Virus record (IMG/VR): IMGVR_UViG_3300040801_003393
Coordinates: 32,001-96,000 of that record
Direction: 5' to 3' (one strand)
Length of the DNA stretch: 64,000 nucleotides
From: a virus
Every line of letters starts with the position of its first letter. The stretch's first letter is position 1. This document shows, one piece after another, positions 38,452 to 58,770 of this stretch. The notes beneath the pieces were generated by a model. The model had not been told where the DNA came from and ran no database searches. It saw nothing but the letters and a program-made list of their open reading frames with translations. Both the position numbers and the translations under genes were made by a program.

Positions 38452-38490
38452 ATAATGTAAAGGGTAATTTGCCCTTTACATTATCTTTTT
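38452..38490 (+). terminator. Intrinsic terminator ending the structural operon
   Basis: 13-bp perfect stem ataatgtaaaggg/ccctttacattat followed by cttttt. Confidence 0.75.
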
Positions 38491-38523: not shown

Positions 38524-38841
38524 ATGTCTAACCAAGATTCCTTAGTTGCTCAAATCAAATATCGGTTTGATCACGAAGCAGCCAAAAAAACACTTAAAGA
38601 AAAATATGAAGCCAAAATGCTTTTTGCAGCGTTTGGCGGAATGTGGCGAGCCGGCCCAAATCTACTGTCAACACTGAACTTATTACACAGTGGCGTATCC
38701 GATGAAGCCGTGTTAGTCGACGAATATGGAAATCCCTGTAAAGTAAATGTTTTGTTGCTTAAAACTGAAGCAATGTCCCGTTGGCAGGAACAAATGAATG
38801 CCTGGTTGATAGAATTTGAAGAATTGCAAAGGCAACGATGA
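38524..38841 (+). CDS. Hypothetical protein
   Basis: GAGG RBS before ATG 38524; coupled to the next gene. Confidence 0.65.
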   Translation: MSNQDSLVAQIKYRFDHEAAKKTLKEKYEAKMLFAAFGGMWRAGPNLLSTLNLLHSGVSDEAVLVDEYGNPCKVNVLLLKTEAMSRWQEQMNAWLIEFEELQRQR

Positions 38842-39665
38842 GCCAGGGATTCTTAATATTTGCGTTCAATAATGGAACATTTGATTATGTGAAGCAAGCA
38901 TTTTGGCTTGCTGATCGTATATCACATTTCCTAAACAAACCAGTAACTATAGTATCTGACGAAGAAAGCATCAAAGGTAAACATACCAATCATAATATAA
39001 TACTAACCGTTACGGATTCGTATAGTAATAGAAGTTTTCAACAAGCAGATAATAAGAATGTATCCCGTTGGTTCAATGGTAATCGATATCAAGCCTATGA
39101 GTTAAGTCCATACGATGAGACAATAATCGTCGATAGTGATTATGTAATTTGTTCCGATCAGTTAAATCTGTTATTTGATCAGGGCAATGATTTTTTAACA
39201 CATAGATTTGTATTAGACGCTGCTTTTAAAAAAAGTTTTGATGCATTTGAAACATTCGGGCAATTACAAATGCCACACTATTGGGCAACAGTTTTGTTCT
39301 TTAGGAAATCTCAATATGCAAAAAATATTTTTGATTTAGTTTCAATGATTCGAAACAATTACAAATACTATAGTGAATTGTATAAATTCCCATCTACACC
39401 TTATCGCAATGATCATGCAGTTAGTATTGCACAAATTATTGCAAATGGGCATAGAATAGAGTCGGTGCCAACAATAGCCTGGAGTCTTTTGACATTACCG
39501 TATGATGCAACAGTAACCCCCATAAATGATGTAACATTTGATATTTCGTATGAAAAATGGAACAGAAACAGAATGATGCCGTTGCGCAATAGAATTTCTG
39601 GAGTTGATTTTCATTGTATGAATAAGTTCGTTCTTGAGGAAATTATTGATGCCGATAAAAGATGA
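38838..39665 (+). CDS. GT-A fold glycosyltransferase-like protein
   Basis: SPYDETIIVDSDY (DxD), YWATVLFF, RND. Confidence 0.65.
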   Translation: MSQGFLIFAFNNGTFDYVKQAFWLADRISHFLNKPVTIVSDEESIKGKHTNHNIILTVTDSYSNRSFQQADNKNVSRWFNGNRYQAYELSPYDETIIVDSDYVICSDQLNLLFDQGNDFLTHRFVLDAAFKKSFDAFETFGQLQMPHYWATVLFFRKSQYAKNIFDLVSMIRNNYKYYSELYKFPSTPYRNDHAVSIAQIIANGHRIESVPTIAWSLLTLPYDATVTPINDVTFDISYEKWNRNRMMPLRNRISGVDFHCMNKFVLEEIIDADKR

Positions 39666-40464
39666 GCGAGGATACCTAATTGTCGCCTATAATACAGGGT
39701 CGGTAGACTATGTTTCATGTGCAGAAGCTTGTGCAAAAAGTATTCGACTACATACGCCAAATGCAAAAATAGCGATACTTGGAAACGATAACATTATAAC
39801 AGAAGCATCTGATGTGTTTGATTTTAAAATACCAGCCCCATATCCAGTAGGAGAAAATGGTTTCGAAGTAGATTGGCAAATTGCATGGGCAAGTCCGTTC
39901 CGCCAAACAATTAAAATCGAAGCAGATATGATAATACCTCATAGTATAGATCATTGGTGGACAATGTTAGAAAAAAAAGATGTTGTATTAACCATTGGTG
40001 CTAGAGACGTTTACGGCAACGCTTCTGATGTTAGATATTATAGAAAAGTATTTGATGAAAACAACTTGCCTGATGTTTATAACGCAATTACATATTGGAG
40101 GTATAGTAAAACGGCAATTGACTTTTTTACATTAGTTAGAAATATTTTCCAAAATTGGAAAGAGATTCAACCAAGCATTAAGTTGGGTTTAAGTGATGTA
40201 GGCACGACTGACCTGGTATATGCAATTGCTGCTAAAATGTTTGGAGTAGAAGAAGTTACATTGCCAAATACGTCATATCCAACACTGGTTCATATGCGTG
40301 GAAAGATTAATAATTTGATACAAGAAGATTGGACAAAAGAGTTAACATGGGAACTGGATAAATCACATATAAGAATTAACACAATCGACCAAATATATCC
40401 ATTCCATTATATAGTTAAGGGGTTTAGTAAAGAATTAAATGAGCACTACAAACAATTTTTTTGA
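39649..40464 (+). CDS. GT-A fold glycosyltransferase-like protein (paralogue of the previous gene)
   Basis: GYLIVA..DYV, SPFRQTIKIEADM, VHM. Confidence 0.6.
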   Translation: MPIKDERGYLIVAYNTGSVDYVSCAEACAKSIRLHTPNAKIAILGNDNIITEASDVFDFKIPAPYPVGENGFEVDWQIAWASPFRQTIKIEADMIIPHSIDHWWTMLEKKDVVLTIGARDVYGNASDVRYYRKVFDENNLPDVYNAITYWRYSKTAIDFFTLVRNIFQNWKEIQPSIKLGLSDVGTTDLVYAIAAKMFGVEEVTLPNTSYPTLVHMRGKINNLIQEDWTKELTWELDKSHIRINTIDQIYPFHYIVKGFSKELNEHYKQFF

Positions 40465-40783
40465 GGCGTTAAAGTTAATAGAACAACCAAAAAAGGTTGA
40501 TATATTCTTTCGTTTATATTATAATGAAATTACCGGACTTCCACTTTATTATTCAATGGAAGATCTTGAAGGACCTTACATAGAAATTTCTAAAGAAGAG
40601 TTTGCGTTAGCAGACTTCAACGTGTTTATTAAAGATGGAAAGATTAAGAAAAAGAAAATGCTTTCTATAGGGAAGTTGGTTCCAAGTAATGTGGGATATC
40701 AAGTCCATAAAGATGATATATCTATAATAGACAATACTTCAAATAGATTTTGGAATAATAAGACCTATGACGCAGACGATTGA
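40439..40783 (+). CDS. Hypothetical protein
   Basis: ORF overlapping both neighbours within the operon. Confidence 0.65.
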   Translation: MSTTNNFFEALKLIEQPKKVDIFFRLYYNEITGLPLYYSMEDLEGPYIEISKEEFALADFNVFIKDGKIKKKKMLSIGKLVPSNVGYQVHKDDISIIDNTSNRFWNNKTYDADD

Positions 40784-41708
40784 TATTGCAGACCTAGATG
40801 TTGTATTTCTGACCTATGATGAACCATTAAAGGAAGAGTTCTGGGTTAAAATTAAAAACATGGTGCCGTGGGCAGTTCGAGTCGATGGTGTTAAGGGAAG
40901 TGATGCTGCCCACAAAGCAGCGGCAGATGCAGCACAAACAGATCGATTTATACTAATTGATGGAGATAATTTACCAGATCCAGAATTCTTTAATTTGGTA
41001 TTAGAATTCCCAAATAATGAGTATAATAATGCGGTATTTCGATGGCGAGCACGGAATCATATTAACGGACTAATGTACGGCAACGGTGGAATTTCGTGCT
41101 GGACAAAAGAGTTCGTATATAATATGAAAACACACGAAGCATCTGTGGGTAACGATGAAACTGATATTGAGTTTTGCTTTGACCCGTTATATTGGCCGAT
41201 GCATGATTGCTATTCCACCACCCACCCAAATCAATCTGCAATGCATGCATGGCGCGCAGGGTTTCGCGAAGGAGTAAAGATGTGCCTTAATAAAGGAGCA
41301 TTGCCTACCATTGGTGAGTTTAAAGATGCAGTTCACAAGCGCAATATGGACCATTTAAGTATTTGGCATAATGTTGGCCTTGACGTTGATAATGGCGCCT
41401 GGGCAATTCTTGGAGCAAGGCAAGGTACTCGGTTAACTATGTTTAAAGAATGGAATTATAAACAAGTACACGACTTTGATCACTTAAATACTTTGTTCAT
41501 TGAGTTAACCAGTGCATTTGAACCCAATTGTGTTTTGGATGAAATCGAACGACTAGGTGAAGAATTAGCATCGCAGTTAGATTTACCAATGTGCGTATTA
41601 ACACCCAATCAAAGCAAATTCTTCAAACATCATTATCGGAGTAACTGGCGCAATCGTGGTCCAATGGTTAGAGAGATTGATGTTATTCGCGAGGAAGAAG
41701 GCTGGTGA
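40767..41708 (+). CDS. Glycosyltransferase-like protein (GT-A, DGD motif)
   Basis: LDVVFLTYDEP, ILIDGDN, NGLMYGNGG, AWRAGFREG. Confidence 0.6.
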   Translation: MTQTIDIADLDVVFLTYDEPLKEEFWVKIKNMVPWAVRVDGVKGSDAAHKAAADAAQTDRFILIDGDNLPDPEFFNLVLEFPNNEYNNAVFRWRARNHINGLMYGNGGISCWTKEFVYNMKTHEASVGNDETDIEFCFDPLYWPMHDCYSTTHPNQSAMHAWRAGFREGVKMCLNKGALPTIGEFKDAVHKRNMDHLSIWHNVGLDVDNGAWAILGARQGTRLTMFKEWNYKQVHDFDHLNTLFIELTSAFEPNCVLDEIERLGEELASQLDLPMCVLTPNQSKFFKHHYRSNWRNRGPMVREIDVIREEEGW

Positions 41709-43078
41709 ATAAATCAAAATTTTTAACTGACGCTGAGTCGATGAGGAAGAAGTTAGATAATATAAGCCCTTCTCTATGCTTAGCGAAATGGAAGCAAGTA
41801 AGTTTACATTTACCAACCGGTCTGAATAACTCGTGCTACCACCCACCATTGCATAAAATTCCAGTAGATGAAATTCGACGCAATCCAGCTGCATTACATA
41901 ACACGCCACACAAAAAAGAAATGCGCAGGCAAATGATGAATGGAGAAAGACCTGCTGAATGTTCCTATTGCTGGAATATGGAAGACAATAGAAAGTTAAG
42001 TGATCGGCATTATCGTTCAGGCGAACCGTGGGCAGCTAAGGACTTTGACGCGATTGTTGCAAACCCAGACGCAGATGTCGTTCCTTCGTATGTAGAAGTG
42101 AACTTTAACCATGCGTGCAACTTGGCGTGTTCTTACTGCTCACCTCAATTTTCATCAACTTGGATGCAACAAGCAAAATCTTTAGGAGCTTATCCAACAA
42201 CTACACCTCATAATGATCCTCAGTATTTCACTGGTGATCGTCGGCCTATTCCAAATCGTGAGGATAATCCGTATGTGGAAGCGTTTTGGAAATGGTGGCC
42301 AGATCTCTACAAAGATTTAATACATTTCCGTATGACCGGTGGTGAGCCACTTATGGATAAAAACACTTACAAGGTGTTTGACTATGTATTGGAGAACCCA
42401 AAAAAAGATTTACATTTAAATGTAACTTCTAACTTTTCTGTTGATCATGAACTGTGGTGCAAGTATTATGACTACGTCAAACACTTGTGCAACGGACAGA
42501 TTGAACATTTTATGCAATATGTTTCTTTGGATTGCTTTGGCAAGCAAGCAGAGTATTTACGTGCCGGAATGGATTTTGGAACAGTTTGGCAACGAGTGCA
42601 TCAATTTTTAGCAGGCATACCCGAATATAGTAGCATCACATTTATTATTACGATGAATAATTTGTCTATCCACTCGTTTAGACAGTTGCTCGAAGGGATT
42701 TTGCAATTACGGCAATCATATAGCAGAACGTATCAACGTGTATGGTTTGACACACCTGTATTACGAACTCCCGCTTGGCAGAGTTTACAAGTATTGCCCG
42801 ATCATTATGCTGATCAGTTGCAAGAAATACACGATTGGATGTTAGAGAATCTCGAAACACCAGATAACCCTTTTAAAGGATTTAAGGATTACGAGGCACA
42901 TAGACTAGACCGAGACATTGCCTGGATGCGTAATGGCACAGATAACTTAGTGCAAAAGAAAGCAGATTTTTATCGATTTTTCTCCGAATACGATAAGCGC
43001 CATAACTATAACTTTGAAAAAACTTTTCCAGAACTTCAACCCTTTTGGGAAGAATGTAAGTATTACGCTACCGTTTAG
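41705..43078 (+). CDS. N-terminal Twitch radical SAM protein
   Basis: CLAKW..SCYH..CSYCW, then CNLACSYC; TGGEP. Confidence 0.9.
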   Translation: MNKSKFLTDAESMRKKLDNISPSLCLAKWKQVSLHLPTGLNNSCYHPPLHKIPVDEIRRNPAALHNTPHKKEMRRQMMNGERPAECSYCWNMEDNRKLSDRHYRSGEPWAAKDFDAIVANPDADVVPSYVEVNFNHACNLACSYCSPQFSSTWMQQAKSLGAYPTTTPHNDPQYFTGDRRPIPNREDNPYVEAFWKWWPDLYKDLIHFRMTGGEPLMDKNTYKVFDYVLENPKKDLHLNVTSNFSVDHELWCKYYDYVKHLCNGQIEHFMQYVSLDCFGKQAEYLRAGMDFGTVWQRVHQFLAGIPEYSSITFIITMNNLSIHSFRQLLEGILQLRQSYSRTYQRVWFDTPVLRTPAWQSLQVLPDHYADQLQEIHDWMLENLETPDNPFKGFKDYEAHRLDRDIAWMRNGTDNLVQKKADFYRFFSEYDKRHNYNFEKTFPELQPFWEECKYYATV

Positions 43079-43115
43079 TAAATACAAAAACCACATAAAA
43101 TAAAGGGAGAAAACA

Positions 43116-43376
43116 ATGGTAGATGTAGTGACGTCCGCGAACGAAGAATTGTACCGCCGAGCATTTGCAATTATGCAAAATCACACAATGGAATGTATTG
43201 AAGAAACAGTTACAGATATGGCACAATTACTGGCAAAAGTTTGCTGTGCATTTGGTGTACCGCAAGACGAAATACTAAATCAAATTACTATAGAACAATT
43301 CGACTATCATTTAAGAAAAATACTTGACAGCAAGGATTGTATGTGCAATAATAATTCGCATGACTCTAAGAAATAA
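43116..43376 (+). CDS. Hypothetical 86-aa Cys-containing protein
   Basis: GGGAG RBS; GTAAATA late-promoter variant at 43078-43084. Confidence 0.6.
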   Translation: MVDVVTSANEELYRRAFAIMQNHTMECIEETVTDMAQLLAKVCCAFGVPQDEILNQITIEQFDYHLRKILDSKDCMCNNNSHDSKK

Positions 43377-44718
43377 AACTCGAGAAACTGATTTACAAAT
43401 AAAACAACACCTGGATAGTTTTAGCCCGTCACTGTGCCTGGCAAAATGGTATAACGCCACTATATGGCTCGGTAGCGGACAAACCACTTCATGCCATCAC
43501 CCACCCGCACACCAAATTAGTGTTAGCGACATTGGGCGCAATCCAAAAGCAATACATAATACCAAAGAGAAGAAAGAGCAGCGGTCCCAAATGTTGCGTG
43601 GTGAAAGGCCAGCCGGATGTGATTATTGTTGGAAGATAGAAGACATCGACTCGGAAAAGATTTCAGACCGTGTTTATAAGTCAGTCATTTATAACGACGA
43701 TGATTTAGAATTTGCGGTGGGACAGAATCCAAACAATGACTTTGACCTTAAAACCCTAGAAATTGCCTTTGACCGAACTTGTAATTTTGCATGTTCATAT
43801 TGTAATCCTGCTTTTTCGTCTGAATGGGTTAAAGATATAAAGAATAATGGGCCCTATTCCAATTTGAAATCCGATGGGAGAAATCACTTTACTCACGCAC
43901 ATGATTCGGCCCAGCCGTTTAAATTAGATGAAGAGAATCCTTATGTTGAGGCATTCTTTAAATGGTGGGAAAGTGATTTGCATAAAACTCTATTTGAGTT
44001 AAGATTAACTGGTGGCGAGCCTTTGATGTCTCCATATACATGGAGATTATTTGATTGGTTTATACAACATAAGTCAAAAATGCGGTTTGCAATCAATAGC
44101 AACCTAGGAGCAAAAGATTCCTTAATTGATAAGTTGATAGAAACATCACACGCTATTGAGGACTTCCATCTTTATACTTCAAACGAGAGTATGTATGAAC
44201 ATGCAGAGTATATTCGTGACGGGTTAATTTGGGATCAATGGGATAAAAACGTTAATAGGATAATAGAAGAAGGCAACATTAAAGGGTTCCATATGATGTG
44301 TACCATTAACGCATTATGTTTAGAATCGTTGCCAGACTTCCTAGATTATCTATTAGACCTTAAACGAAAGTATGGAAAAGATTTCCCAACGTTTACGTTA
44401 AATATTTTACGATTCCCTAGTTTCCAGAGTCCATTGGTACTTCCGTTGGAGTTGCGTGGGTTTTTTCGTAAAAGATTGTACGATTGGTTAGTGGCTAATC
44501 AAAATAATGATCTACTTCATCAAATGGAAATTAATCAAGTTAATAGACTAATAGACTATTTAGATGTTGTAAAAACACCGCACAACAATGTATTCGATAT
44601 AGAATCATTATTGCATAATGACTTTTATCATTTCTATAAGCAATATGATGAGCGCCGCCGCAAGAATTTTACAGAAACATTCTCTCAAATAGCATCCTGG
44701 TACCGGAGTTTAAAATGA
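43360..44718 (+). CDS. N-terminal Twitch radical SAM protein
   Basis: CLAKW..SCHH..CDYCW, CNFACSYC, TGGEP; ATG 43360 follows TTGACA-17-AATAAT at 43324-43352. Confidence 0.9.
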   Translation: MTLRNKTRETDLQIKQHLDSFSPSLCLAKWYNATIWLGSGQTTSCHHPPAHQISVSDIGRNPKAIHNTKEKKEQRSQMLRGERPAGCDYCWKIEDIDSEKISDRVYKSVIYNDDDLEFAVGQNPNNDFDLKTLEIAFDRTCNFACSYCNPAFSSEWVKDIKNNGPYSNLKSDGRNHFTHAHDSAQPFKLDEENPYVEAFFKWWESDLHKTLFELRLTGGEPLMSPYTWRLFDWFIQHKSKMRFAINSNLGAKDSLIDKLIETSHAIEDFHLYTSNESMYEHAEYIRDGLIWDQWDKNVNRIIEEGNIKGFHMMCTINALCLESLPDFLDYLLDLKRKYGKDFPTFTLNILRFPSFQSPLVLPLELRGFFRKRLYDWLVANQNNDLLHQMEINQVNRLIDYLDVVKTPHNNVFDIESLLHNDFYHFYKQYDERRRKNFTETFSQIASWYRSLK

Positions 44719-46379
44719 ATTTAAAAGAAATTCTATCTAAGATAGAAACAGAATACGATGTGATTACAATTATTGAACTAAATCAATGGCGCGAGTTGCC
44801 TTTTTATAAACGAGAATCCTGGTTAAAGAAAGCGTTATACCAAGCAAGGAAAGATGTTTATCAAAATAAAGAAAGAATTGTGCTGACGTTAACGGTTGAT
44901 TACCAGGCAGATTTAATTTTAGAAATTGTAGAGCGTCTTATATTTGAAATTGATATTAGTGATTTTTTTGTTACATTCATTACTAATCTTAATCTATCCA
45001 GCGACCGAATTTCAATAATTAGGTGTGATAACCCAGTTATAACTGTCGTTGATGGCGATGATGTAGAAATGAAATTGATTAAAAAACTTTCCCCGGGATA
45101 TATTTCCATCGCACCAGAAAAAAGAGATATATCTACATTGACTAATTCACAGGCAAATTTACTTTTAGAAAGTGAGACATTTTGTATGTATCCTTGGATA
45201 CATTTACATGCATACCCAACAGGCGAAGCCTGGCCATGTTGTCATGCTGAGAGATCTCCAGGAGAACTTGGTTCCTGTCGGGAACAATCACTTCAGGAAT
45301 TGTGGAATAGTCCGAAACAAAAGCAGCTAAGAAAAGACATGTTAGCCGGGGTCCCAAATAGTTATTGTATTCGTTGTTATGAACGGGAAAAAAGTGGATT
45401 TTTTTCTGGCAGGCAATGTGCCAATAAACACCACGGTCACCATATAAATCGAGTTGATCATACAAAAGAGGACGGGCATTTAGATCAATTCGAAATGACA
45501 TATTGGGATATTCGTTTTTCTAATTTGTGTAATCTTAAATGTCGCTCATGCGGACATATATTTTCATCTACTTGGTATCAAGATCAAGTTGCATTGGCCG
45601 GACCGGATTGGGGCAAGAAAAATAAACCGTTACAAATTGCTGGACGTTACGAAGGAGATTTATTCCAGCAACTATTAGAACATGTTGATCGTGTTGAACA
45701 AATATATTTTGCAGGTGGTGAACCATTGATGATGGAAGAGCATTACGCTATATTAGATGAACTTGAAAAGCGTAATATGTTCCATGTTCGGTTAATTTAC
45801 AATACAAATTTTACAAAAACAAAATTTAAGGATAGAGAGGTTTTTGATTATTGGCGTAAGTTTAAGTCAGTGTCGGTCGGCGCAAGTTTAGACGCAATGG
45901 GTCCGAGAGCAGAGTACATACGATCTGGAACTAAGTGGGAAACAATAGAATCCAATCGCAAGCGAATGATGGAAATTTGCCCTGAGGTAGACTTCTATGT
46001 TAGTGCTACTCTTAGTATCATGAACGCATTGCATTTGCCCGATTTCCATCGCGAATGGGTAGATAAAGGTTTTATTAGAGGACAAGACTTTAATGTTAAT
46101 ATTCTTCAGGATCCGGCATTTTATCGAATCGATATTGCGCCTCAAGAAATGAAGAAAGAAATCGAACACCGATATATAGAACACCTACTTTGGCTCAAGG
46201 GGCAAGATCACATTGAGCGTGCAACCAATGGATTTGAAAGTGCTATTAGATATATGAATGCAACAGATAACTCATACCTAATAGGTAAATTTTGGGAGAG
46301 AACTCTGCAATTAGATGAACTGCGCAATGAATGTATATATGATTATATTCCTGAGTTGAAGAGGTTACACAATGACTGA
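44715..46379 (+). CDS. Twitch radical SAM protein with extra N-terminal module
   Basis: CMYPW..PCC..CIRC, CNLKCRSC, AGGEP. Confidence 0.9.
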   Translation: MNLKEILSKIETEYDVITIIELNQWRELPFYKRESWLKKALYQARKDVYQNKERIVLTLTVDYQADLILEIVERLIFEIDISDFFVTFITNLNLSSDRISIIRCDNPVITVVDGDDVEMKLIKKLSPGYISIAPEKRDISTLTNSQANLLLESETFCMYPWIHLHAYPTGEAWPCCHAERSPGELGSCREQSLQELWNSPKQKQLRKDMLAGVPNSYCIRCYEREKSGFFSGRQCANKHHGHHINRVDHTKEDGHLDQFEMTYWDIRFSNLCNLKCRSCGHIFSSTWYQDQVALAGPDWGKKNKPLQIAGRYEGDLFQQLLEHVDRVEQIYFAGGEPLMMEEHYAILDELEKRNMFHVRLIYNTNFTKTKFKDREVFDYWRKFKSVSVGASLDAMGPRAEYIRSGTKWETIESNRKRMMEICPEVDFYVSATLSIMNALHLPDFHREWVDKGFIRGQDFNVNILQDPAFYRIDIAPQEMKKEIEHRYIEHLLWLKGQDHIERATNGFESAIRYMNATDNSYLIGKFWERTLQLDELRNECIYDYIPELKRLHND

Positions 46380-47949
46380 GTATCGACGATTAGCCACAAT
46401 AAATGCCAATGAATTTAGGTCAAAGTTCGAACTTATTAAAGAACTAAAAAAATATTATAAAGAAGAATATCAAAATGACGAAAGAATAGTTGTTAACATC
46501 AATGAAACATTTAATAATAGCATCTACGGTGACCATCTTTCGATGTTACAACTTGCATTGAATGATATTGATATATCAAACTTTTTTATTCTAGTTAATA
46601 GTAATGATAACAATATTAAAGAACATGTTAAGTGGGTTACTGATAACCTGAGTTACGATACAGTTTCTGTGCAAATTTCAGAAACCAACAATGATAGATA
46701 CCAGGCAACAAGATCCCAATTAAAAACCAGATATCCTCAATTAAATATCCCAACTGAGTCTTTTTGTGTGTTGCCATGGATTAGTCTTGAAGCCGGGCCA
46801 ATTGGCACGGTTCGTCCTTGTTGCTTAACAGACGACGAAATAAAAGACGAGTACGACCAACCTTATACGTTAACAGAAAATTCACTGAGCGAAATACATA
46901 ATTCAGAGTGGATGCAAATTTTACGTTCAGAATTTCTTCAGGGTAAGAAGCCAACGACTTGTCGAAAGTGCTGGGACACAGAAGCCGCAGGTATTAAAAG
47001 CAAGAGACAACATATGCAAGACCGGTTAAAGGAGATCCTGGCTACGGAAATAAAATGGACAGAAGATGCAAAATCACTAATGTTTCTTGATTTAAAACTT
47101 GGAAATATCTGCAACTTAAAGTGCCGTATTTGCGGAAGTTGGTCTAGTTCAACTTTTGCTACAGAAGAATTAGAACAAGTTAAAAGTAAGAAAGATAGTT
47201 GGCATTATGTAATGCTATCGCAAGGACGCTGGCCGCGTACATCGCCACACTTTTGGGAAGACCTATATAAGATGAGTTCAGACTTGCGGTATATTGAATT
47301 TACCGGTGGTGAACCATTTATGATTAAAGAGCACTTTGCATATTTGCAATACCTAGTCGACCAGGGTTTTGCACAAAACATCGAAATACATTATAACACA
47401 AATGGAACACAGTGGCCAGAAGAGCATATACACTTATGGAAACATTTTAAGTTAGTTGAAATTGCTTTCTCAATTGACAATATTGGAATTCGATTCGAAT
47501 ACGAAAGAACAAATGCTACGTGGCCGGAGGTTGTTTATAACCTAAAACATTTCTTTGAACTGCGTAACAAAAACAAAAATATTCAGTTGCAATTATGTAC
47601 AACCATTAATATTTATAATGTTTTGTACTTAGAAAGCATCTGCCATTGGGAATTTTTTGATAAGTTTGATTTTGTTTATTGGAATATGTTACATAATAGC
47701 CCAGAAAATTGCATTCAAGCGTTGCCGCCTTCAGTGAAGTCCGCTGTGGCTGCAACACTACGTCGCGCGAAGGTTGACGAAAAAACTCGTCAAGAGTTTG
47801 ATAAAGTCATTGAATTCATGAATAGATCAAACGGTGTGTTTCCTAAAGCAGTTACAGATCGAATCGACGAATTAGATGAGAGAAGAGACCATAGTTTGCG
47901 TTCTACTCATCCCGAATTATATAGGCTCTTATATGAAGAGGCCAACTAA
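46372..47949 (+). CDS. Twitch radical SAM protein with extra N-terminal module
   Basis: CVLPW..PCC..CRKCW, CNLKCRIC, TGGEP. Confidence 0.9.
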   Translation: MTEYRRLATINANEFRSKFELIKELKKYYKEEYQNDERIVVNINETFNNSIYGDHLSMLQLALNDIDISNFFILVNSNDNNIKEHVKWVTDNLSYDTVSVQISETNNDRYQATRSQLKTRYPQLNIPTESFCVLPWISLEAGPIGTVRPCCLTDDEIKDEYDQPYTLTENSLSEIHNSEWMQILRSEFLQGKKPTTCRKCWDTEAAGIKSKRQHMQDRLKEILATEIKWTEDAKSLMFLDLKLGNICNLKCRICGSWSSSTFATEELEQVKSKKDSWHYVMLSQGRWPRTSPHFWEDLYKMSSDLRYIEFTGGEPFMIKEHFAYLQYLVDQGFAQNIEIHYNTNGTQWPEEHIHLWKHFKLVEIAFSIDNIGIRFEYERTNATWPEVVYNLKHFFELRNKNKNIQLQLCTTINIYNVLYLESICHWEFFDKFDFVYWNMLHNSPENCIQALPPSVKSAVAATLRRAKVDEKTRQEFDKVIEFMNRSNGVFPKAVTDRIDELDERRDHSLRSTHPELYRLLYEEAN

Positions 47950-49261
47950 TAAACCAGATAATTTGTGTATGGCTCCTTGGACCCATACATATCTTTCTCC
48001 GCAAACAGAACGACGAATGTGTTGTGCAAGTAGAGAACCAGCACAGAACTTTGAGCAGTACATTGATACTGCCGCAGGGTCTGGCCAGTATGAACCATTA
48101 ACTCTTGAAGAGCACTGGAATGGTGATCATATGCGTTCAGTACGTCGACGTATGATGTACGGAGAAATATTGCCAGAGTGTGAGGTATGCAATCATAAGT
48201 TATTAAACACTGATGTTTACCGTGATTACTTCTGGCATCTATTTAAACACAAGTATGATGACATATGGGACTTAACCGACGAGTCGGGCTATACAGAGAT
48301 GGAACCGATTAGTTGGGACTATAGATTTTCAAACTTGTGTAACTTTGCATGTATGCAATGTGGTGATATGCTAAGTTCGCAATGGGAAGCGGAAGAGCGC
48401 AAACATGATATGATTAACTGGCACGATTCTAAAAATAATTGGATGAAGCCAGAGATACGTTCTCAAATTAAAGACTTTCAAGTAACACAAATCAACGAAG
48501 AATTTTCCAAAGCAGTTGAAGAACATCGAGTAGAAGAAATATACTGGGTTGGTGGTGAGCCGTTGATGATGGAAGAACACTGGCGGTATATGAAACGTAT
48601 TGTTGACTTAAATGACGGCGGAAGAGTTTATGCAAGATACAATACAAACTTGTCGAGAGTAGAGTACAAAGGAGTACATTTGTATCGAGATATATTACCA
48701 TATATTCGTGACTGGCAAATATGTGCAAGCATTGATGGGTTAGGCGAAATAGGCGAGTATATACGTTACGGGTTAAGCGAATCGGTATTTTTAGACAATT
48801 ACTATGCAGGACTGGAGATTGCAAAGAACCCTCGCAACATGCGGTTGGATTTTACTTTAACCCTGCCAGGATTATTTTGCATGAAGGATATGTTTAATTT
48901 AAGTAAAGAAACAAATACAACCTTATTGTCAAAAGTAACATTTGCGTTTAGCCCAGACATTATGATGTCACCACTTATGTTACCACGTACAATACTAGAA
49001 CGAATAGTTAAAGAGTTCTTAACATGGGCAGATAATGAGGGCTGGGATAATAATCAACGCCCATTAATTGATGTATTGCAAAACTTATTAAATCGTCCTA
49101 CGTTTGAGGAACGGTGGCCAGAACAATTTAGAGAAGGCCAAGTTAAAGGTAAAAATCGTACTAAACGGATCGAGTCGATTAGGTTGCAATCTTGCACCTT
49201 AGAAGATATACTTAGAACAGAGGACACGGAAGCATATGAATGGTACAAAAGTATTGCTTGA
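47933..49261 (+). CDS. N-terminal Twitch radical SAM protein
   Basis: CMAPW..MCC..CEVC, CNFACMQC, VGGEP. Confidence 0.9.
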   Translation: MKRPTNKPDNLCMAPWTHTYLSPQTERRMCCASREPAQNFEQYIDTAAGSGQYEPLTLEEHWNGDHMRSVRRRMMYGEILPECEVCNHKLLNTDVYRDYFWHLFKHKYDDIWDLTDESGYTEMEPISWDYRFSNLCNFACMQCGDMLSSQWEAEERKHDMINWHDSKNNWMKPEIRSQIKDFQVTQINEEFSKAVEEHRVEEIYWVGGEPLMMEEHWRYMKRIVDLNDGGRVYARYNTNLSRVEYKGVHLYRDILPYIRDWQICASIDGLGEIGEYIRYGLSESVFLDNYYAGLEIAKNPRNMRLDFTLTLPGLFCMKDMFNLSKETNTTLLSKVTFAFSPDIMMSPLMLPRTILERIVKEFLTWADNEGWDNNQRPLIDVLQNLLNRPTFEERWPEQFREGQVKGKNRTKRIESIRLQSCTLEDILRTEDTEAYEWYKSIA

Positions 49262-50339
49262 TGAGATTGAAATTCAATTAAGAAACATCGATACTGGGCA
49301 CTTACATACAATTTACATTGATGTATTTGATACCTCGCTATCGAGAAAATGGTATGCAGCATTAAACGGGTTATTAGAAAATAAGAATCACCTGGAAAAG
49401 AATTATTGCTTCATGGGTTTTGCTGATTATGCTCGCAATGGCGAGTATATACTAAACAAAGTTAACGAGTCTATTGCTGCTATTAATGAGGCAGACTTAG
49501 GATACGTCATAAACGATAACTTTACAATGGACAATTCGCTTGAAAGCGGAGAAGTCGGGCCTAACCTCCCAGGACGAAAAATTATACACGACAAGTTTAA
49601 TTGGCTCCATCGATACTTTGAAGACCTTCAAGGAACGTTTGGCCACGGCGGTAGCGGTTCATCATTTTATAACCGTGCTGATCCCAAAACAAAATGGCAT
49701 ATACGTCAACTTAATTTGCTTTGTCACGAATTTGAAAGTTGGGCACTATCGTATAGAAAAGTAATTGAAGCGCCCGAGTGGCAACGTCCATCGACATTAA
49801 TGTGTTGGATAAATGCTCCGCGCTTTGAATTAACAGAAGAAGATTATGAAAGTTTTGGAATTGAAACATTAAATCGTCCGTATGGTGGTGTACACGTTGG
49901 TGTAAATAAAGCAGTCGGAAAGCACCACTGGGAGGTTTTTGTTGACGAGGGCGATGCATATGATCGATCCAAGGATGAAACCGTAACCTCAGTATTACGA
50001 CCGCAATCACAAGCCGCTGGAGACTTTGATATTGAGTGGGGAAAAGGTGTTGCTGAATTTAGTTTCCATAAAGAAAAAATAGAAAAGTTTCAGCAATGGC
50101 TTATTAAAAACGGATGGGATCCAGAAGATAAAAGTTTAACAATTGGACATCCACAAGTAGGACAAGTTAATTTGATTAAATCGTTTGGTACCAGTGATCC
50201 TGCTACCGGCTGGGAAATTTTAAATAATCACCTAGATGTTTACTCGGTTCATACTAGTGAAGCAAGAGCGGAGTATCCATACCATTGGTCCGATAAGGAT
50301 TATATGGAGCAACAAGTAAAGGCATTAGGAGGCAGGTAA
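49236..50339 (+). CDS. Hypothetical protein in the rSAM operon
   Basis: 367-aa ORF overlapping the upstream gene; LHRYFE and LCHEFE His/Glu motifs. Confidence 0.7.
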   Translation: MNGTKVLLDEIEIQLRNIDTGHLHTIYIDVFDTSLSRKWYAALNGLLENKNHLEKNYCFMGFADYARNGEYILNKVNESIAAINEADLGYVINDNFTMDNSLESGEVGPNLPGRKIIHDKFNWLHRYFEDLQGTFGHGGSGSSFYNRADPKTKWHIRQLNLLCHEFESWALSYRKVIEAPEWQRPSTLMCWINAPRFELTEEDYESFGIETLNRPYGGVHVGVNKAVGKHHWEVFVDEGDAYDRSKDETVTSVLRPQSQAAGDFDIEWGKGVAEFSFHKEKIEKFQQWLIKNGWDPEDKSLTIGHPQVGQVNLIKSFGTSDPATGWEILNNHLDVYSVHTSEARAEYPYHWSDKDYMEQQVKALGGR

Positions 50340-50443
50340 TGTTTAATTGGATAAAAAGAATAATTAATAAAATTAAACTAGAAGTTCGTTATCGAAAAAA
50401 GATGAAAGAACTAAAAAAGAAAGACCCGTTTATCTATAAATGA
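50339..50443 (+). CDS. 34-aa basic peptide ending DPFIYK (not in ORF track)
   Basis: MFNWIKRIINKIKLEVRYRKKMKELKKKDPFIYK; TAATG and ATGA overlaps on both sides; AGGAGG upstream. Confidence 0.75.
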   Translation: MFNWIKRIINKIKLEVRYRKKMKELKKKDPFIYK

Positions 50444-51957
50444 AAAATATATTAGGAATATCGGCTGGATTCCATGACGCAGGGCTTTCAGTAATAAGTC
50501 CGGCCGGCGACATTTTGTTTGCAAGTCACGCCGAGAGATTTTCAAAGAAAAAACATGACGCTGAAATGTGTACGCATATGGTAAATTATGCAATGCAGTT
50601 TGGCGAAGTTGATACGATTGCATATTATGAAAGGCCATGGTTAAAAAACTTAAGAATGGTCAGGTCAGGCCAAGGGGCTGATTCGCCATGGCAATTAAAA
50701 AATGTATTAAATAAACATTTGTTTTTTCATCCAAAGTTAGTCAACAATGCAAATTTAAAGGCATTCGGTCATCATCTATCACACGCAGCAGCAGGCTTTC
50801 AAACCTCGCCGTTTGATGATGCCACTGTGCTTGTTATTGATGCAATTGGTGAGTTTGATACAGTTAGTGTTTGGAATGCATGGTACGATAAAAAAGGTAA
50901 TGCACAATACAAACTGCGGTGGAGGATGAAGTACCCAGATTCTATTGGTATGTTTTATTCGGCTATGACTAAGTTCGTGGGATTACGCCCAATGGACGAA
51001 GAGTACATTTTAATGGGTATGGCTGCATACGGAAAAAATATCGAAGTAGTTGGAAAGATGGCTGATCGCTTTTTAGCAGTACCAGACCCATCACATGAGC
51101 CATTCACTTTTAAGGATAATTTACATATCGGAGTTGACACCGACTGGATACAAAAAGAACATATCTCTGATTTTGATATTGCTATGGCCACCCAAGAAAT
51201 ATTAGAATGGCAATTACATCGAATCATGCTGAAGAGTATGCAATATCGGAACTCTGGAAATTTAGTTTATATGGGTGGTGTAGCATTAAACTGTTTAGCA
51301 AATAGAGCCCTCGGACGATACTATAAAGATGTCTGGATTATGCCAAACCCAGGCGATGCTGGTTCAAGTTTAGGTGCAGCAGCCCTAGCCTATAAAAAGA
51401 AACTTAACTGGAAAGATGCATATCTCGGTTATAACATCGAGGGCGAGTATCCAGTTAAACCTATAATTGATGAATTGATAGTTAATAAGATTGTTGGTGT
51501 AGCAAATGGTCGAGCCGAGTTTGGGCCAAGAGCATTAGGCAATAGATCTTTACTGGCAGATCCACGCGGCCACGATATTAAAGACAAAGTTAATGAAATT
51601 AAACGCAGGCAACAATTCCGCCCATTTGCTCCAGTCATACTTGAAGAACATGTGCGTGAATATTTCAATATGCCAACCGGGTTTAATACATCACCGTATA
51701 TGCAAGTCGTTGCCAAGTGTAAGCGCCCAGATGAGTTTCCAGCGATCATACATGCCGACGGTACTAGTCGAGTACAAACGGTTGCTAATGATGGTTCCGG
51801 CATAAGAAAATTATTAGAAGCCTGGAAAGTTTATACCGGCTGTCCTATGCTACTAAACACATCACTGAACATTCGTGGCGAACCAATGGTTAATGATGTT
51901 AGTGACGCAAAACGATTTGAAGATTTGTATAAAGTAAAGGTTTTTACAAGTGTTTGA
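50440..51957 (+). CDS. Carbamoyltransferase, NodU/CmcH family
   Basis: LGIS..FHD, ERF..KKH, HHLSHA, GGVALN, EFGPRALGNRS, FRPFAP, LNTSLN. Confidence 0.93.
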   Translation: MKNILGISAGFHDAGLSVISPAGDILFASHAERFSKKKHDAEMCTHMVNYAMQFGEVDTIAYYERPWLKNLRMVRSGQGADSPWQLKNVLNKHLFFHPKLVNNANLKAFGHHLSHAAAGFQTSPFDDATVLVIDAIGEFDTVSVWNAWYDKKGNAQYKLRWRMKYPDSIGMFYSAMTKFVGLRPMDEEYILMGMAAYGKNIEVVGKMADRFLAVPDPSHEPFTFKDNLHIGVDTDWIQKEHISDFDIAMATQEILEWQLHRIMLKSMQYRNSGNLVYMGGVALNCLANRALGRYYKDVWIMPNPGDAGSSLGAAALAYKKKLNWKDAYLGYNIEGEYPVKPIIDELIVNKIVGVANGRAEFGPRALGNRSLLADPRGHDIKDKVNEIKRRQQFRPFAPVILEEHVREYFNMPTGFNTSPYMQVVAKCKRPDEFPAIIHADGTSRVQTVANDGSGIRKLLEAWKVYTGCPMLLNTSLNIRGEPMVNDVSDAKRFEDLYKVKVFTSV

Positions 51958-53578
51958 CATTTTTTACATCCACAATCCACCACACGGAAGACTTGCTAGC
52001 ATTGCTAAGCAGGTAGAAACAATAGCAGATGCCCGATCAGCGGCAAAAACCCGTTACTGTTGGGTTGTGGATGGCTTTAATAATTACGATGATTTTGATT
52101 TTCTATGGGAACCAAAACCCTGGGAAGCCAATCGAGATCACGTATGGCCGTCACAGCATCAACAGCATGGCGGAACAATGTTGCTAACAAAAGATTGGGG
52201 AGGGGATACAAACTATAACCATCCTGTTGTTCCCCGCGTAACTGCACCCAACATCATTTATTTAGACATAGGCAATTCTGAATCAGACGAACAATACGAC
52301 ATACTTCAAAAGCAGTTTAACATAGTTAAGACGCGGTTTATAGCAGATTACCACGGTACGCTAAAACGTGTTATTAGTAAGATTGAAGAACCATATGTTT
52401 GGGTTATTGGTTCTGTTTGTGACTACGAAGAGTTTGATTTTACTTGGCACCCAAGCGAATGGCAAAGAGATATGTTGCATGTATTTCCGTCGAGCGAACA
52501 AAAGTTTGGAGATACGTTTTATATCCCAGTACAAAAATTCAAAGAAAACCCAGGAGAACTATTAGAATGGTTTGACACAATCTGTTTCCAAGATCAAACC
52601 GTACCTCGATTTGCCCCGCCTATTGTTTACAAGTCAAAGACCGATACAATTGCTGAGTTAGCTAAGTCAGCAAAGTTCAATGGACCAATTGGTGTATTAA
52701 CAACTGATCCAACTCTGCAAATGTATCCTGAAGTAGTCCCGGCAATTAATCTTTGGAGGAAAGAAACAAGAACGATCGTTCCAATAACAAAGAGTCATTC
52801 TATTGCAGTATTTCCTCGTGATGCTTTAGCAGATGTTAAACATGAAGTCTATGATTACCCCTACATTGATAAATCGCTAGAAAACAAATACGGTGAGCCA
52901 CCGCTTGATGTAGTATTTTTAAGCAACGGCGAAACAAATGCCGAAGAAAATTTAGCATACCTCAAAGAACATTTGCCAGAGAAAATGACATTACATGAAG
53001 TGTCTGGTATCAATGGTCGTGTTGCAGCATATCAAGCATGTGCTGAGGCGGCCAACACTGACTGGTTGTTTATTGTTTGGGGTAAGTTAAAGATCAATAA
53101 ACATTTTGATTGGTCTTGGCAGCCAGATCGGTTCCAGCAAGCAAAGCATTATATCTTCTATGCTCGCAACCCAGTAACTAATTTAGTTTATGGACACATG
53201 GGAATGGCTGCGTACAATAAACGATTAACATTAAAGAACGATGGTAGCGGCTTAGATTTTATCATGTCCCAACCGCATGAGGTTGTACCGTTATTGTCTG
53301 GTACAGCCGAGTATGCCCATAATCCGTGGATGGCCTGGCGCACCTCATTTCGAGAGGTGTTGAAGTTAAAAAGTTTTGAGAAAACCGATGCCAAAGCAGC
53401 CACTCGACTTAACAGTTGGATGACCGTTGGCGATGGAGAATTTGGACAGTGGTCTTTGTTGGGCGCTAAAGACGGAATTGATTATTACAAGTCAGTTAAT
53501 GGTAACTTTGAAAGTCTGAAATTGAGTTATGAGTGGGCCTGGCTTCGCGAACGATTTGACAAACTTTATCCTGGATAA
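51950..53578 (+). CDS. Multi-repeat glycosyltransferase-like protein
   Basis: Three internal FD(F/W).W.P repeats; C-terminal domain resembles 40767-41708. Confidence 0.6.
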   Translation: MFDIFYIHNPPHGRLASIAKQVETIADARSAAKTRYCWVVDGFNNYDDFDFLWEPKPWEANRDHVWPSQHQQHGGTMLLTKDWGGDTNYNHPVVPRVTAPNIIYLDIGNSESDEQYDILQKQFNIVKTRFIADYHGTLKRVISKIEEPYVWVIGSVCDYEEFDFTWHPSEWQRDMLHVFPSSEQKFGDTFYIPVQKFKENPGELLEWFDTICFQDQTVPRFAPPIVYKSKTDTIAELAKSAKFNGPIGVLTTDPTLQMYPEVVPAINLWRKETRTIVPITKSHSIAVFPRDALADVKHEVYDYPYIDKSLENKYGEPPLDVVFLSNGETNAEENLAYLKEHLPEKMTLHEVSGINGRVAAYQACAEAANTDWLFIVWGKLKINKHFDWSWQPDRFQQAKHYIFYARNPVTNLVYGHMGMAAYNKRLTLKNDGSGLDFIMSQPHEVVPLLSGTAEYAHNPWMAWRTSFREVLKLKSFEKTDAKAATRLNSWMTVGDGEFGQWSLLGAKDGIDYYKSVNGNFESLKLSYEWAWLRERFDKLYPG

Positions 53579-54593
53579 ACTCAACTTCCTCGAGCGTAAG
53601 TTCAGGATAAAACGGCAATGAGATACTACACTTAGATAGTCGTGTACTAGTATCGCCGCCATAGTAGGGTAGCGCAGCAAATAACCCAACGGTATGTAAC
53701 GGATTGGAGTAATGAACTCTGGCTTCAATGCCGTTGCGATACAATTCGTTTAATACATAATCACGATTATCAACTTGTATAACAAATTTATGCAATGCAT
53801 GCTTGTTGATGTTATCTAGAGTAATCATTGTCTTAATGTTATTTGCATTAAATGCATCTATCCATTTTAATGCAATTTGTTTTCTAGCCGCTTGCCACTG
53901 GTCAAGGTATTTTGTTTTTACCATGAGCATAGCACAATCCATTTCGTTCATACGCGAGTTTGACCCAGGCATTAAATGCACATATCTCTTCCCGTGCGCT
54001 CGGTAATTTAGTGCATACTCGTATAGTTCATCGTCGTTAGTAACAATAGCACCACCGTTGCCGTAGTTTGGAAGGTTCTTAGTCGGATCAAAACTTATAG
54101 CGGTAGTAGTTGACATGCGATGACAGTTGTTGCTAAGCCAATGCTGAGCACCATCTTCAACCAAACATCCTTGATTTAATCGGTCAGGCAATGCAATACC
54201 GTGCAAGCCAACACCAACTATAATGTCAAAAGCATGTTGCTCGGGAGGTAGAATAACACCATCCTCATCGCAATCGGCCAAACAAATATCCCAACCAGCA
54301 GTGACAAAGGCATTGATAGTAGCAGGGAATGTATAAGATGGCAATAGAGCATACTTGCCATTCTCTTTATAGTAACGAGCAATAATTTCTAGAGCATTTG
54401 TACCGCTGCCGCAAGTAACAGCATACGGCATTTGATTTTTTATAGCCAACCAATCTTCAAACTGCTCAGTATACGGACCATCAAGCAGTCGTCCAGTTTC
54501 GGCTACTGTGGCATACGCAGTCATTAGTTCTTCTTTGTGTAAAAGAAACTGCCGACTAAGGTTGTTAAATGGAATTTGTTTTGAGCCAGTCAT
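53496..54593 (-). CDS. DegT/DnrJ/EryC1/StrS PLP-dependent sugar aminotransferase
   Basis: SGTNAL, EDGAQ, SFDPTKNL..GNGG, NSRM, SLPFYPEL. Confidence 0.92.
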   Translation of the reverse strand: MTGSKQIPFNNLSRQFLLHKEELMTAYATVAETGRLLDGPYTEQFEDWLAIKNQMPYAVTCGSGTNALEIIARYYKENGKYALLPSYTFPATINAFVTAGWDICLADCDEDGVILPPEQHAFDIIVGVGLHGIALPDRLNQGCLVEDGAQHWLSNNCHRMSTTTAISFDPTKNLPNYGNGGAIVTNDDELYEYALNYRAHGKRYVHLMPGSNSRMNEMDCAMLMVKTKYLDQWQAARKQIALKWIDAFNANNIKTMITLDNINKHALHKFVIQVDNRDYVLNELYRNGIEARVHYSNPLHTVGLFAALPYYGGDTSTRLSKCSISLPFYPELTLEEVEFIQDKVCQIVREARPTHNSISDFQSYH

Positions 54594-55503
54594 AGTATAA
54601 AGTTAACCCTTTTTCTAGAGGGGTGCCGTCGGGCAACCCAAGATGTTCTTTAGCAGAAGCAATATTTAGACCACCACGCTTAGGGTAGGATGCATCGCGA
54701 GGATTGATTTTAATATGTCCTGCACCGACCAACTCAATAATAGTTTCGGCTGCATGCAATAACGTTTGTGGATGCCCGCTTGTTACATTAAATGTTCCTG
54801 GAACTCTTCTGGTTGCAGCCTGAACGATGCCTTGAGTAATATCGTCAATATAAGTGAAGTCTAGTGTTTCGCCAGCACCACAAACATTCAATTCTTTGTT
54901 TTCTATTGCTGACTTGAAGAAAAGACTTATTACCCGTTCAGTAACATCCATTGGGCCATACACTGCACTAGGACGAATAACCGTTACTGTACCACCAGAG
55001 GTCTCTGCCCAGAGTCTACATAACTGCTCTCCAGCCAGTTTATAGATACCATATGCGGAGGTAGGGTTGCACGGATCGTTTTCAGTCGGAGGCTCCGCAG
55101 GAAAGTCACCATACACCATTGAACTACTGATATAAACAAAGTGAGAAGCAATACCGCGACAAGCCGATAGTACATTATGCAACCCAACGGTCATTGTACT
55201 GATGCCCTGCTCGGGATATTGACTAACCAGTGCCGCTCTTGGATAGGCAGCTAAATGTATAACAACATCTGGTTTTATTCTTTTAATTGCTGCTGATACT
55301 TTGTCTCGATCGCTAATATGAATTGAGTAAACATTTTTCAAATCGTTGCCAAGTCGTAGCTGCAAAAGTTTTTGATATTTTGACGACGGCATGATATTGT
55401 AGCAATCGAAGTTATCAATGATGTTTACTTTATTATTGTGTTTTAACTGATTAAAAACATGGGAGCCAATAAACCCAGCACCGCCAACTAATAGGTATTT
55501 CAT
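54565..55503 (-). CDS. NAD-dependent NDP-sugar epimerase/dehydratase
   Basis: GGAGFIG, HLAA, SSSMVYG, YGIYK, VYGP, DFTYIDD. Confidence 0.92.
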   Translation of the reverse strand: MKYLLVGGAGFIGSHVFNQLKHNNKVNIIDNFDCYNIMPSSKYQKLLQLRLGNDLKNVYSIHISDRDKVSAAIKRIKPDVVIHLAAYPRAALVSQYPEQGISTMTVGLHNVLSACRGIASHFVYISSSMVYGDFPAEPPTENDPCNPTSAYGIYKLAGEQLCRLWAETSGGTVTVIRPSAVYGPMDVTERVISLFFKSAIENKELNVCGAGETLDFTYIDDITQGIVQAATRRVPGTFNVTSGHPQTLLHAAETIIELVGAGHIKINPRDASYPKRGGLNIASAKEHLGLPDGTPLEKGLTLYYDWLKTNSI

Positions 55504-57460: not shown

Positions 57461-58144
57461 TTATTTAGACGCCTCAACAGAGTCGCTTACTACCACTGGT
57501 GCATCAGTTGCTGATGCTTTTTTGGTGGTTGTTTTTTTGGCAGCTTTGGTACGTGCTGGTTTCTTAGGACGTGGAGAAGAGTCTAATTGATAGGCTTCTT
57601 CAAGTAGCCGTTTGCTTTCAGCAATCATTACATTTGCTTCAGCTTCCATTTGTGAAGCCTGCGCCAATCGTTGCTTAGCTAATGTAGCATCATCAAGTAC
57701 AGGTTCATTAACTGGTGCTTCAGTTTTCTTCATGGGATCAGCAAACCCAGCATTCTGATCGAGGTCGGCCATTTTTTGTGCCGCTTCCGATCCCGCTTCC
57801 ATACCATTTAAAATGGTATTGAGTTCGTCTAACCTAACGTGGCTTGAAACGTTTGGTGTAACAATTACTTGGTTGGTCGGAACCTTTTTAATCATACCTT
57901 CACGATGTAAGGTTTGTAAGATTGGACGACCGTCGGGTAGTAAGTTACGAAACAATGGTTCAGAAAGCTCTTTTGCTTCTTGACCGGGCGCCGATTCAAT
58001 CACTTTCATGATGGTATCGTGGAATGCTTTTGGAAGTGTTTCGGGATACACAACCAGGCACATATGGTCTTCGCCCGGTACTTGCCTATAAATAATGGCG
58101 ACCTTTCGATCGCCATGTTTCCCAATGTGCTTTATGAATGCCAT
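57461..58144 (-). CDS. Hypothetical protein with basic K/A-rich C-terminal tail
   Basis: Start MAFIKH with GGAGG RBS. Confidence 0.7.
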   Translation of the reverse strand: MAFIKHIGKHGDRKVAIIYRQVPGEDHMCLVVYPETLPKAFHDTIMKVIESAPGQEAKELSEPLFRNLLPDGRPILQTLHREGMIKKVPTNQVIVTPNVSSHVRLDELNTILNGMEAGSEAAQKMADLDQNAGFADPMKKTEAPVNEPVLDDATLAKQRLAQASQMEAEANVMIAESKRLLEEAYQLDSSPRPKKPARTKAAKKTTTKKASATDAPVVVSDSVEASK

Positions 58145-58145
58145 A

Positions 58146-58418: not shown

Positions 58419-58490
58419 AAAAATCCTCTTGTGGTTAAATTATATGCTATTATTTAACACAATAGCAACCCACGAAAGAATTTTTTGATG

Positions 58491-58769: not shown

Positions 58770-58770
58770 G

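Follow-up and report, generated by a model that had tools for sequence, protein, structure and literature searches.

IMG/VR virus record IMGVR_UViG_3300040801_003393 carries, directly after its tail-fiber genes, a tightly coupled plus-strand operon in which five radical S-adenosylmethionine (SAM) enzymes (rSAMs) stand among sugar-transferase-like proteins and a carbamoyltransferase. The stretch analyzed, referred to here as the window, comprises 64,000 nucleotides (bases 32001-96000 of the 110.5-kb record), of which the island occupies 38.5-55.5 kb. With moderate confidence, we read the island as a soluble, cytoplasmic pathway that builds and radically tailors a sugar-bearing molecule, the acceptor most likely being a virion protein. 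A preliminary description, drawn from the letters and their open reading frames (ORFs), had listed five Twitch-type rSAMs, a carbamoyltransferase, a DegT aminotransferase, and an epimerase, found here to be a short-chain dehydrogenase/reductase (SDR), in an operon following a tail-fiber terminator; Pfam and NCBIfam matches and a hairpin at 38452-38484 bear out this content and layout. It had also judged five near-tandem rSAMs to be exceptional for a phage. The five are indeed present, but such a set is the norm across at least 80 related contigs of uncultured jumbo phages rather than a peculiarity of one phage, and their N-terminal Twitch layout is already catalogued as NF033640 and is not new.

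The radical SAM enzymes and their relatives

What kind of rSAMs are these? The products of g06 (41705-43078), g08 (43361-44718), g09 (44715-46379), g10 (46372-47949), and g11 (47876-49261), all on the plus strand, span positions 1-398 of the NCBIfam model NF033640 (N_Twi_rSAM) and score 321, 310, 405, 332, and 271 bits, respectively, against a curated cut-off of 170 bits. A sixth copy, of the g10 type, lies on the minus strand 37 kb from the island (6594-8105) and scores 251 bits to NF033640 and 227 bits to the g10 hidden Markov model, so that all six, at 251-405 bits, are full-length members of the family. In each island enzyme, the CX3CX2C motif is preceded by C-x18-C(C)-x41..46-C-x2-C, and a GGEP motif is present as well. 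Four cysteines N-terminal to CX3CX2C are invariant in all six copies. Because just these four are conserved in the N-terminal domain, it is expected to bind one auxiliary cluster, as a Twitch domain does, and not to be a full SPASM domain; the seven to eight cysteines and two auxiliary [4Fe-4S] clusters of the latter are not found in the island rSAMs. The Pfam matches agree in order, with SPASM preceding Radical_SAM and covering the N-terminal half-domain only. g09, g10, and the sixth copy also have in common an extra N-terminal module of about 125 amino acids (aa).

The preliminary description had tied its reading to the rSAM cysteines being kept by selection, and kept they are: all seven Fe-S ligand cysteines are 95-100% conserved among 54-66 non-identical orthologs per subtype, at a mean identity of 50-64%. 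One further cysteine is retained in each subtype, at a position specific to that subtype, and by analogy could be a hydrogen atom donor, as in NeoN and HygY.

When a profile of the six paralogs was compared with the PDB, the cores of viperin-like enzymes, SkfB, and MoaA were matched, and the N-terminal part aligned with the Twitch domain of BtrN (E 5e-5). By sequence, the rSAM core comes closest in the PDB to viperin-like enzymes (E 3e-7), a similarity confined to that core; identity as viperin or pVip was rejected, since NF038283 scores 17-37 bits against a cut-off of 180. Weak NCBIfam matches are to sactipeptide and other maturases. Our literature search found no paper on NF033640 or on these rSAM arrays and no assayed member. 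Carbohydrate-acting rSAMs do exist elsewhere, BlsE and AprD4 among them. Other precedents are the Twitch dehydrogenase BtrN (PMC3791736) and the Twitch epimerases HygY (PMC8611816) and NeoN (as cited in PMC10991966). Like BtrN, HygY, NeoN, and BlsE, the island enzymes have one auxiliary [4Fe-4S] Twitch domain, but theirs precedes the SAM core, whereas in the known sugar enzymes it follows, and the similarity is at superfamily level only (BlsE, E 0.002-0.003).

In a 130-sequence tree, each phage subtype forms its own clade (support, 0.95-1.0), and the five rSAMs are therefore not redundant. Four subtypes have a sister clade from Bdellovibrionota, with support of 0.93-1.0 for g08, g09, and g11 and of 0.67 for g06; a single bacterial copy falls within the g10 clade, to which the sixth copy of the window is sister. 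This topology implies that the five subtypes are older than the split between the phage and bacterial lineages. The bacteria themselves are rich in the family. Bdellovibrionota genomes carry about 8-21 above-cut-off copies each, in tandem arrays of up to seven (for example, 16 copies in a complete 1.9-Mb Bdellovibrionales chromosome and 21 in another genome, G004), while no copy above the cut-off was found in any of 14 control genomes. The flanks of the arrays (PhoH, GGDEF, Obg, S9 peptidase, FtsH, Mfd, and an integrase with type IV secretion system [T4SS] genes) offer no clue to a substrate. Loci L087 and L129-L132 are examples of this expansion, and some arrays adjoin an integrase and T4SS genes.

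Gene order and the sugar-related proteins

Synteny was taken from 80 IMG/VR loci. Of these, 57 cover the whole stretch from g02 to g12, and every one of the 57 has nine core genes, namely, g02, g03, g05, the five rSAMs, and g12, with identical order in 54, an arrangement far beyond chance. Co-conservation, on which the preliminary description had made its reading depend, is thus strict. g13 comes next in 42 of 54 informative loci; for g14, g15, and g16, the figure is about 12-13 of 27. A fiber homolog lies upstream in 37 of 37 loci. Five rSAM matches were counted in 48 loci and six or seven in 21. Relatives of the island genes are numerous: g09 alone has over 7000 in databases, many of them sharing 55-60% identity and lying on contigs as long as 329 kb, and g03 has over 6000. 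At the DNA level, the island matched none of 50,697 phage records. Separately, two contigs (L085 and L098; 153 and 335 kb) that binning assigned to Candidatus Neomarinimicrobiota carry g01-g02-g03-g05-g06 in phage order; they probably come from jumbo phages and entered a bacterial metagenome-assembled genome (MAG) by mis-binning. The g06-g08 gap (window 43079-43376; loci L015, L018, L034, L038-L040, L056, and L057) is an insertion hot spot, occupied here by g07 and in other lineages by an SDR-like gene or extra rSAMs.

The preliminary description counted four glycosyltransferase (GT)-like genes. The best case is g05 (40767-41708, plus strand; 313 aa), with a predicted N-terminal GT-A/nucleotide-diphospho-sugar-transferase fold and a helical C-terminal part. 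Its DxD motif, D65-G66-D67-N68, is invariant in 25 sequences. All top VIA matches of its model (pLDDT 73; residues 4-149) are GT-A or nucleotidyltransferase chains (Z 5.2-7.4; root mean square deviation, 3.2-4.9 Å; 108-142 residues aligned), and Foldseek matched the PBCV-1 capsid glycosyltransferase A64R with a probability of up to 0.85 but an E value of 0.1. g02 (38838-39665; 275 aa) and g03 (39634-40464; 276 aa; phrog_1903), both on the plus strand, are paralogs (hhalign, 98.6%), and both keep a DxD-like motif (LDADY in the g02 consensus). The strand pattern of their N termini is, by eye, typical of GT8, and g02 is a probable GT-A/GT8-like nucleotide-sugar transferase at motif level only. 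A lead for g03 comes from the protein atlas, where Nucleotid_trans/GT8 clusters share 178-180 features with it at a score of 0.96; a profile built from the g03 family retrieved nothing but close, unnamed orthologs. The fourth gene, g14 (51950-53578, plus strand; 542 aa), occurs in a subset of lineages and has a C-terminal half homologous to g05 (hhalign, 99.6%) in which the DxD is replaced. Support for the four is thus uneven: g05 has a predicted fold and an invariant motif, g02 and g03 a DxD-like motif, and g14 homology to g05 in its C-terminal half. PDB sequence-profile searches with g05, g12, g02, and g03 gave chance matches only.

g13 (50440-51957, plus strand; phrog_1601, E 6e-100) encodes a NodU/CmcH-family carbamoyltransferase, with Carbam_trans_N and Carbam_trans_C both above cut-off at 131 and 172 bits (Pfam E 1e-50 and 9e-38). 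It is a family member and not a NodU ortholog (131 bits against the NF041651 cut-off of 1000). Overlapping its start is a basic 34-aa micro-ORF ending in ...DPFIYK (50339-50443, plus strand), which is 70-80% identical across loci, has no Pfam match, may resemble DUF5989/SxtK, and is translationally coupled to g13 by an ATGA overlap. Both it and g12 are further members of the island. g12 (49236-50339, plus strand; 367 aa) is modeled with confidence (pLDDT 85; pTM 0.85) as a beta-barrel of cyclophilin type into which a helical segment is inserted; its cyclophilin-like VIA match is middling (Z 8-9.5; about 130-150 residues aligned). Its significant relatives in BFVD are uncharacterized phage proteins only, one of them in Atu_ph07, and Foldseek against the PDB gave no match and the protein atlas no usable one. 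A relationship of g12 to DUF6071, a family that looks SGNH-like by eye, was tested and rejected.

What about the amino sugar pair? On the minus strand, g15 (53496-54593) encodes a DegT/DnrJ/EryC1 pyridoxal phosphate aminotransferase (Pfam, 188.8 bits; E 2e-55) that keeps the cofactor-binding lysine motif SFDPTK, and g16 (54565-55503) encodes an extended SDR (Pfam E 3e-41) with GxxGxxG and YxxxK. 4,6-Dehydratases typically carry a catalytic Asp-Glu dyad (TDEVYG). Since g16 has SSSMVYG in that place while keeping GxxGxxG and YxxxK, it is, by its motifs, a GalE-like epimerase or oxidoreductase rather than a 4,6-dehydratase; the NDP-hexose 4,6-dehydratase model TIGR01181 scores 120 bits against a cut-off of 365. 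The pair proposed in the preliminary description to make NDP-amino sugars is present but accessory, occurring in only about 12 of 27 informative loci.

The link between these rSAMs and carbohydrate genes, also anticipated there, recurs outside the island. In three further settings, glycosyltransferase, DegT, SDR, or RmlC-type genes are neighbors of family members. In a Bacteriovoracaceae MAG (locus L097), a g05-like gene, an rSAM, two Pfam-significant GT2 proteins, DegT, SDR, and a second rSAM lie together. A Pelagibacterales MAG (locus L116) has GT2, GT7, at least one N-Twitch rSAM, SDR, an RmlC-like epimerase, a thiamine pyrophosphate enzyme, another rSAM, and SDR. In Vibrio phage K566, four distant rSAM copies are interleaved with two Pfam-significant GT8 proteins. 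Ralstonia phage RsoM2USA (L002; genes 199-203) encodes a g08 ortholog at 54% identity together with three DUF6071 paralogs and a carbamoyltransferase at 46% identity. The DUF6071 paralogs of this mini-cassette in a cultured jumbo phage bear GCSMTYG, GGSSN, and DHPL motifs and appear SGNH-like by eye; hhalign of g02 and g03 against DUF6071 was not significant.

The remaining island genes are small. g01 (38524-38841, plus strand; about 105 aa) is conserved, with homologs in 58 loci; its ORF call begins at 38494, and the ATG at 38524, preceded by a GAGG ribosome-binding site (RBS), is the better-supported start, as the preliminary description had it. g04 (40439-40783, plus strand; 114 aa) has no cysteine. 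g07 (43116-43376, plus strand) is an 86-aa, Cys-rich ORF with a strong RBS that is lineage specific, with one homolog (L034). Neighboring island genes overlap by 1-32 nucleotides (nt), except for a 37-nt gap before g07 and the 74-nt overlap of the g10/g11 ORF calls, where the true g11 start probably lies about 60 nt later. Likewise, the g08 ORF call starts at 43324, and translation probably begins instead at the ATG at 43361, yielding 452 aa, equal to the ortholog median length. As described before, the operon meets the epimerase and DegT genes head-on: the 3' end of g14 overlaps the convergent g15 by 83 nt, and g16, a 97-aa ORF, thyA, and the dihydrofolate reductase (DHFR) gene follow. Upstream, a plus-strand terminator-like hairpin (38452-38484; a 15-bp stem, then the T-run CTTTTTAATA) lies between the end of the last tail gene (38435) and g01 and divides the fiber genes from the island. 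The T4-type late promoter TATAAATA is not enriched, sigma-70 promoter matches are at chance level, and no Rfam RNA lies within the island. No island protein has a transmembrane helix (no hydrophobic 19-mer above 1.4 on the Kyte-Doolittle scale), and the island accordingly provides no flippase, polymerase, or lipid-linked step.

The proposed pathway and its rivals

How might such a set of enzymes work together? We infer a chemistry for each rSAM, an order of steps, and a target as follows. The GT-A-type transferases (g05 and probably g02 and g03) would attach sugars. Each of the five N-Twitch rSAMs would cleave SAM to a 5'-deoxyadenosyl radical and abstract a hydrogen from an unactivated sugar C-H bond, the outcome being an oxidation, epimerization, dehydration, or similar step by analogy with BtrN, HygY, and NeoN. 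g13, with its 34-aa partner peptide, would O-carbamoylate a hydroxyl. In some lineages, the GalE-like SDR and the DegT aminotransferase would add an amino sugar branch; DegT could aminate a keto sugar supplied by an rSAM or the SDR, as BtrS acts after BtrN, a known pairing of an rSAM with a DegT enzyme that resembles the one seen here. The acceptor would most likely be a virion protein made by the adjacent fiber genes, a target favored because the enzymes are soluble and the fiber genes constantly adjacent. The preliminary description had named the virion, the host surface, and phage DNA as possible sites of modification. The absence of a membrane protein and the 37/37 fiber adjacency lean toward a cytoplasmic target such as virion proteins.

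Several points weigh against this proposal. A terminator separates the island from the fiber genes, and co-expression with structural genes does not follow from adjacency. Module boundaries, where the island sits, often receive accessory genes. Both the terminator and this position weaken the case for a virion protein. SPASM/Twitch enzymes more often modify peptides, and no NF033640 member with an assigned substrate was found in the literature. The transferases are also divergent: g05 falls below the Pfam Glycos_transf_2 threshold (16.6 and 17.5 bits against cut-offs of 23.3 and 27), no Pfam GT match was obtained for g02 or g03 (23 members of the g02 family scanned), and hhalign of g02 and g03 against the K566 GT8 pair was not significant (probability below 2%). 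Finally, many Bdellovibrionota arrays have no sugar genes close by and stand amid genes of housekeeping functions or mobile elements.

Could the sugar chemistry serve the host surface rather than the virion? The island might rewire the host nucleotide-sugar pool or edit precursors of lipopolysaccharide or capsule in the cytoplasm, altering the surface so as to block superinfection or the adsorption of progeny to debris. Host-recognition clusters of pelagimyophages hold glycosyltransferases and rSAM cassettes that their authors read as O-chain modification (PMC7029224), DegT with SDR is typical of O-antigen sugar genes, and the bacterial loci L097 and L116 resemble polysaccharide loci. However, the island has no flippase, polymerase, polyprenyl-phosphate transferase, or membrane protein of any kind, and the strict conservation of nine genes at 50-65% identity over many lineages is unlike a hypervariable surface cassette; we consider a surface role rather improbable. 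It is slightly harder still to believe that the rSAMs modify proteins or peptides directly, by cross-linking or epimerizing fiber proteins or the small g01 and g04 products, with the GT-like proteins secondary. Most characterized SPASM/Twitch enzymes are peptide maturases, to which the rSAMs have their weak NCBIfam matches; the island follows fiber genes in every informative locus; Bdellovibrionota arrays can lack sugar genes; and a recognition domain might be provided by the N-terminal module found in g09, g10, and the sixth copy. Yet no conserved precursor-like peptide with a repeated or Cys-rich core was seen (g07 being lineage specific and g01 and g04 ordinary small proteins), no RRE or leader peptidase was detected, and the three further phage and bacterial contexts pair the family with glycosyltransferases.

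Two other explanations strike us as distinctly improbable, and equally so. One is that the island hypermodifies phage DNA, placing glycosylated and/or carbamoylated bases to evade restriction. Phage glycosyltransferases and carbamoyl groups are indeed known for modified bases (Pyle 2024, as cited in PMC12619734), the island is soluble, and it adjoins the nucleotide-metabolism genes thyA and DHFR. The ThyA homolog, however, keeps the dUMP-type Asn of PFNIAS and is paired with DHFR like an ordinary thymidylate synthase; the window showed no hydroxymethylase, TET/JBP, DNA kinase, or DpdA (the record being about 31% of the genome); and the island is joined to the structural module, not to the replication module. 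The other is that it makes a diffusible small molecule, such as a metabolite resembling an aminoglycoside or nucleoside, or else a nucleotide analogue of the viperin kind for host takeover. A Twitch rSAM with DegT and a carbamoyltransferase mirrors butirosin/tobramycin-type chemistry (for BtrN, see PMC3791736), the rSAM core is closest to viperin-like enzymes in the PDB, and the family is expanded in predatory bacteria. Against this stand the scores to the viperin model, far below its cut-off, the absence of any cyclitol or sugar synthase, exporter, or self-resistance gene, and the three or four transferase-like genes, which suggest polymer or protein glycosylation.

How does the proposed virion glycosylation compare with known systems? 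Chlorovirus PBCV-1 A64R, the sugars of Mimivirus fibrils, and mycobacteriophage capsid and tail glycosylation (PMC10527164) also involve soluble virus GT-A enzymes, the fold predicted for g05, and amino sugar genes beside structural genes, and A64R is itself among the structural matches of g05. No rSAM or carbamoyltransferase takes part there, however. The pelagimyophage cluster resembles the island in having rSAM cassettes and glycosyltransferases beside the tail-fiber genes of marine myophages; it is hypervariable, with a function guessed by its authors, whereas the island is strictly conserved in content and order. For the "Moraphages" (PMC12619734), core glycosyltransferases are present and rSAMs are not mentioned, and these phages are therefore probably of another lineage. 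With NF033640 itself, the island enzymes share the 4-Cys N-terminal Twitch domain, CX3CX2C, and GGEP, and differ in that five fixed, ancient subtypes are held in one operon with transferases and a carbamoyltransferase. We read the island as a further form of virus-encoded glycan machinery, centered on an already catalogued rSAM family.

Genome setting and biological meaning

The record has an estimated completeness of 31% (CheckV), so the whole genome would be roughly 350 kb. The structural module lies on the plus strand. Its baseplate wedge protein (17456-20836) shares about 34% identity with counterparts in Atu_ph07, GAP32, and other jumbo myophages. It is followed by one 4516-aa ORF (20842-34392, plus strand), of which residues 2324-2388 weakly match the N-terminal domain of the T7 tail fiber and which has a hint of FG-GAP repeats, and by three plus-strand fiber-type genes: t1 (34569-35177), t2 (35231-36727), with a Peptidase_G2 intramolecular-chaperone domain, and t3 (36822-38435), the last tail gene. 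t2-like fiber paralogs also occur outside the window on the same contig (G000:C1:3971-7633 and 14293-16140). The GC content is 0.49 at window positions 58000-62000, against about 0.38 in the rest of the window.

A bolder reading, which we hold to be unlikely though worth stating, is that the five subtypes are an unrecognized class of radical glycan or glycoprotein editors that work in series on an assembled virion sugar chain. They would then be an ancient toolkit common to giant phages and predatory Bdellovibrionota, decorating structures used to attack Gram-negative cells. The question is testable, as the cultured phages RsoM2USA and K566 bear reduced versions of the island. If radical glycan tailoring is true, very abundant uncultured giant phages devote about 12-17 kb to oxygen-sensitive radical chemistry for an exotic carbamoylated glycan, and aquatic jumbo phages would join chloroviruses, mimiviruses, and mycobacteriophages among the viruses that encode their own glycosylation. 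It would also give a first function to an rSAM family that fills up to about 1% of the genes in some predatory bacteria, and the island may be a source of new C-H-functionalizing carbohydrate enzymes.

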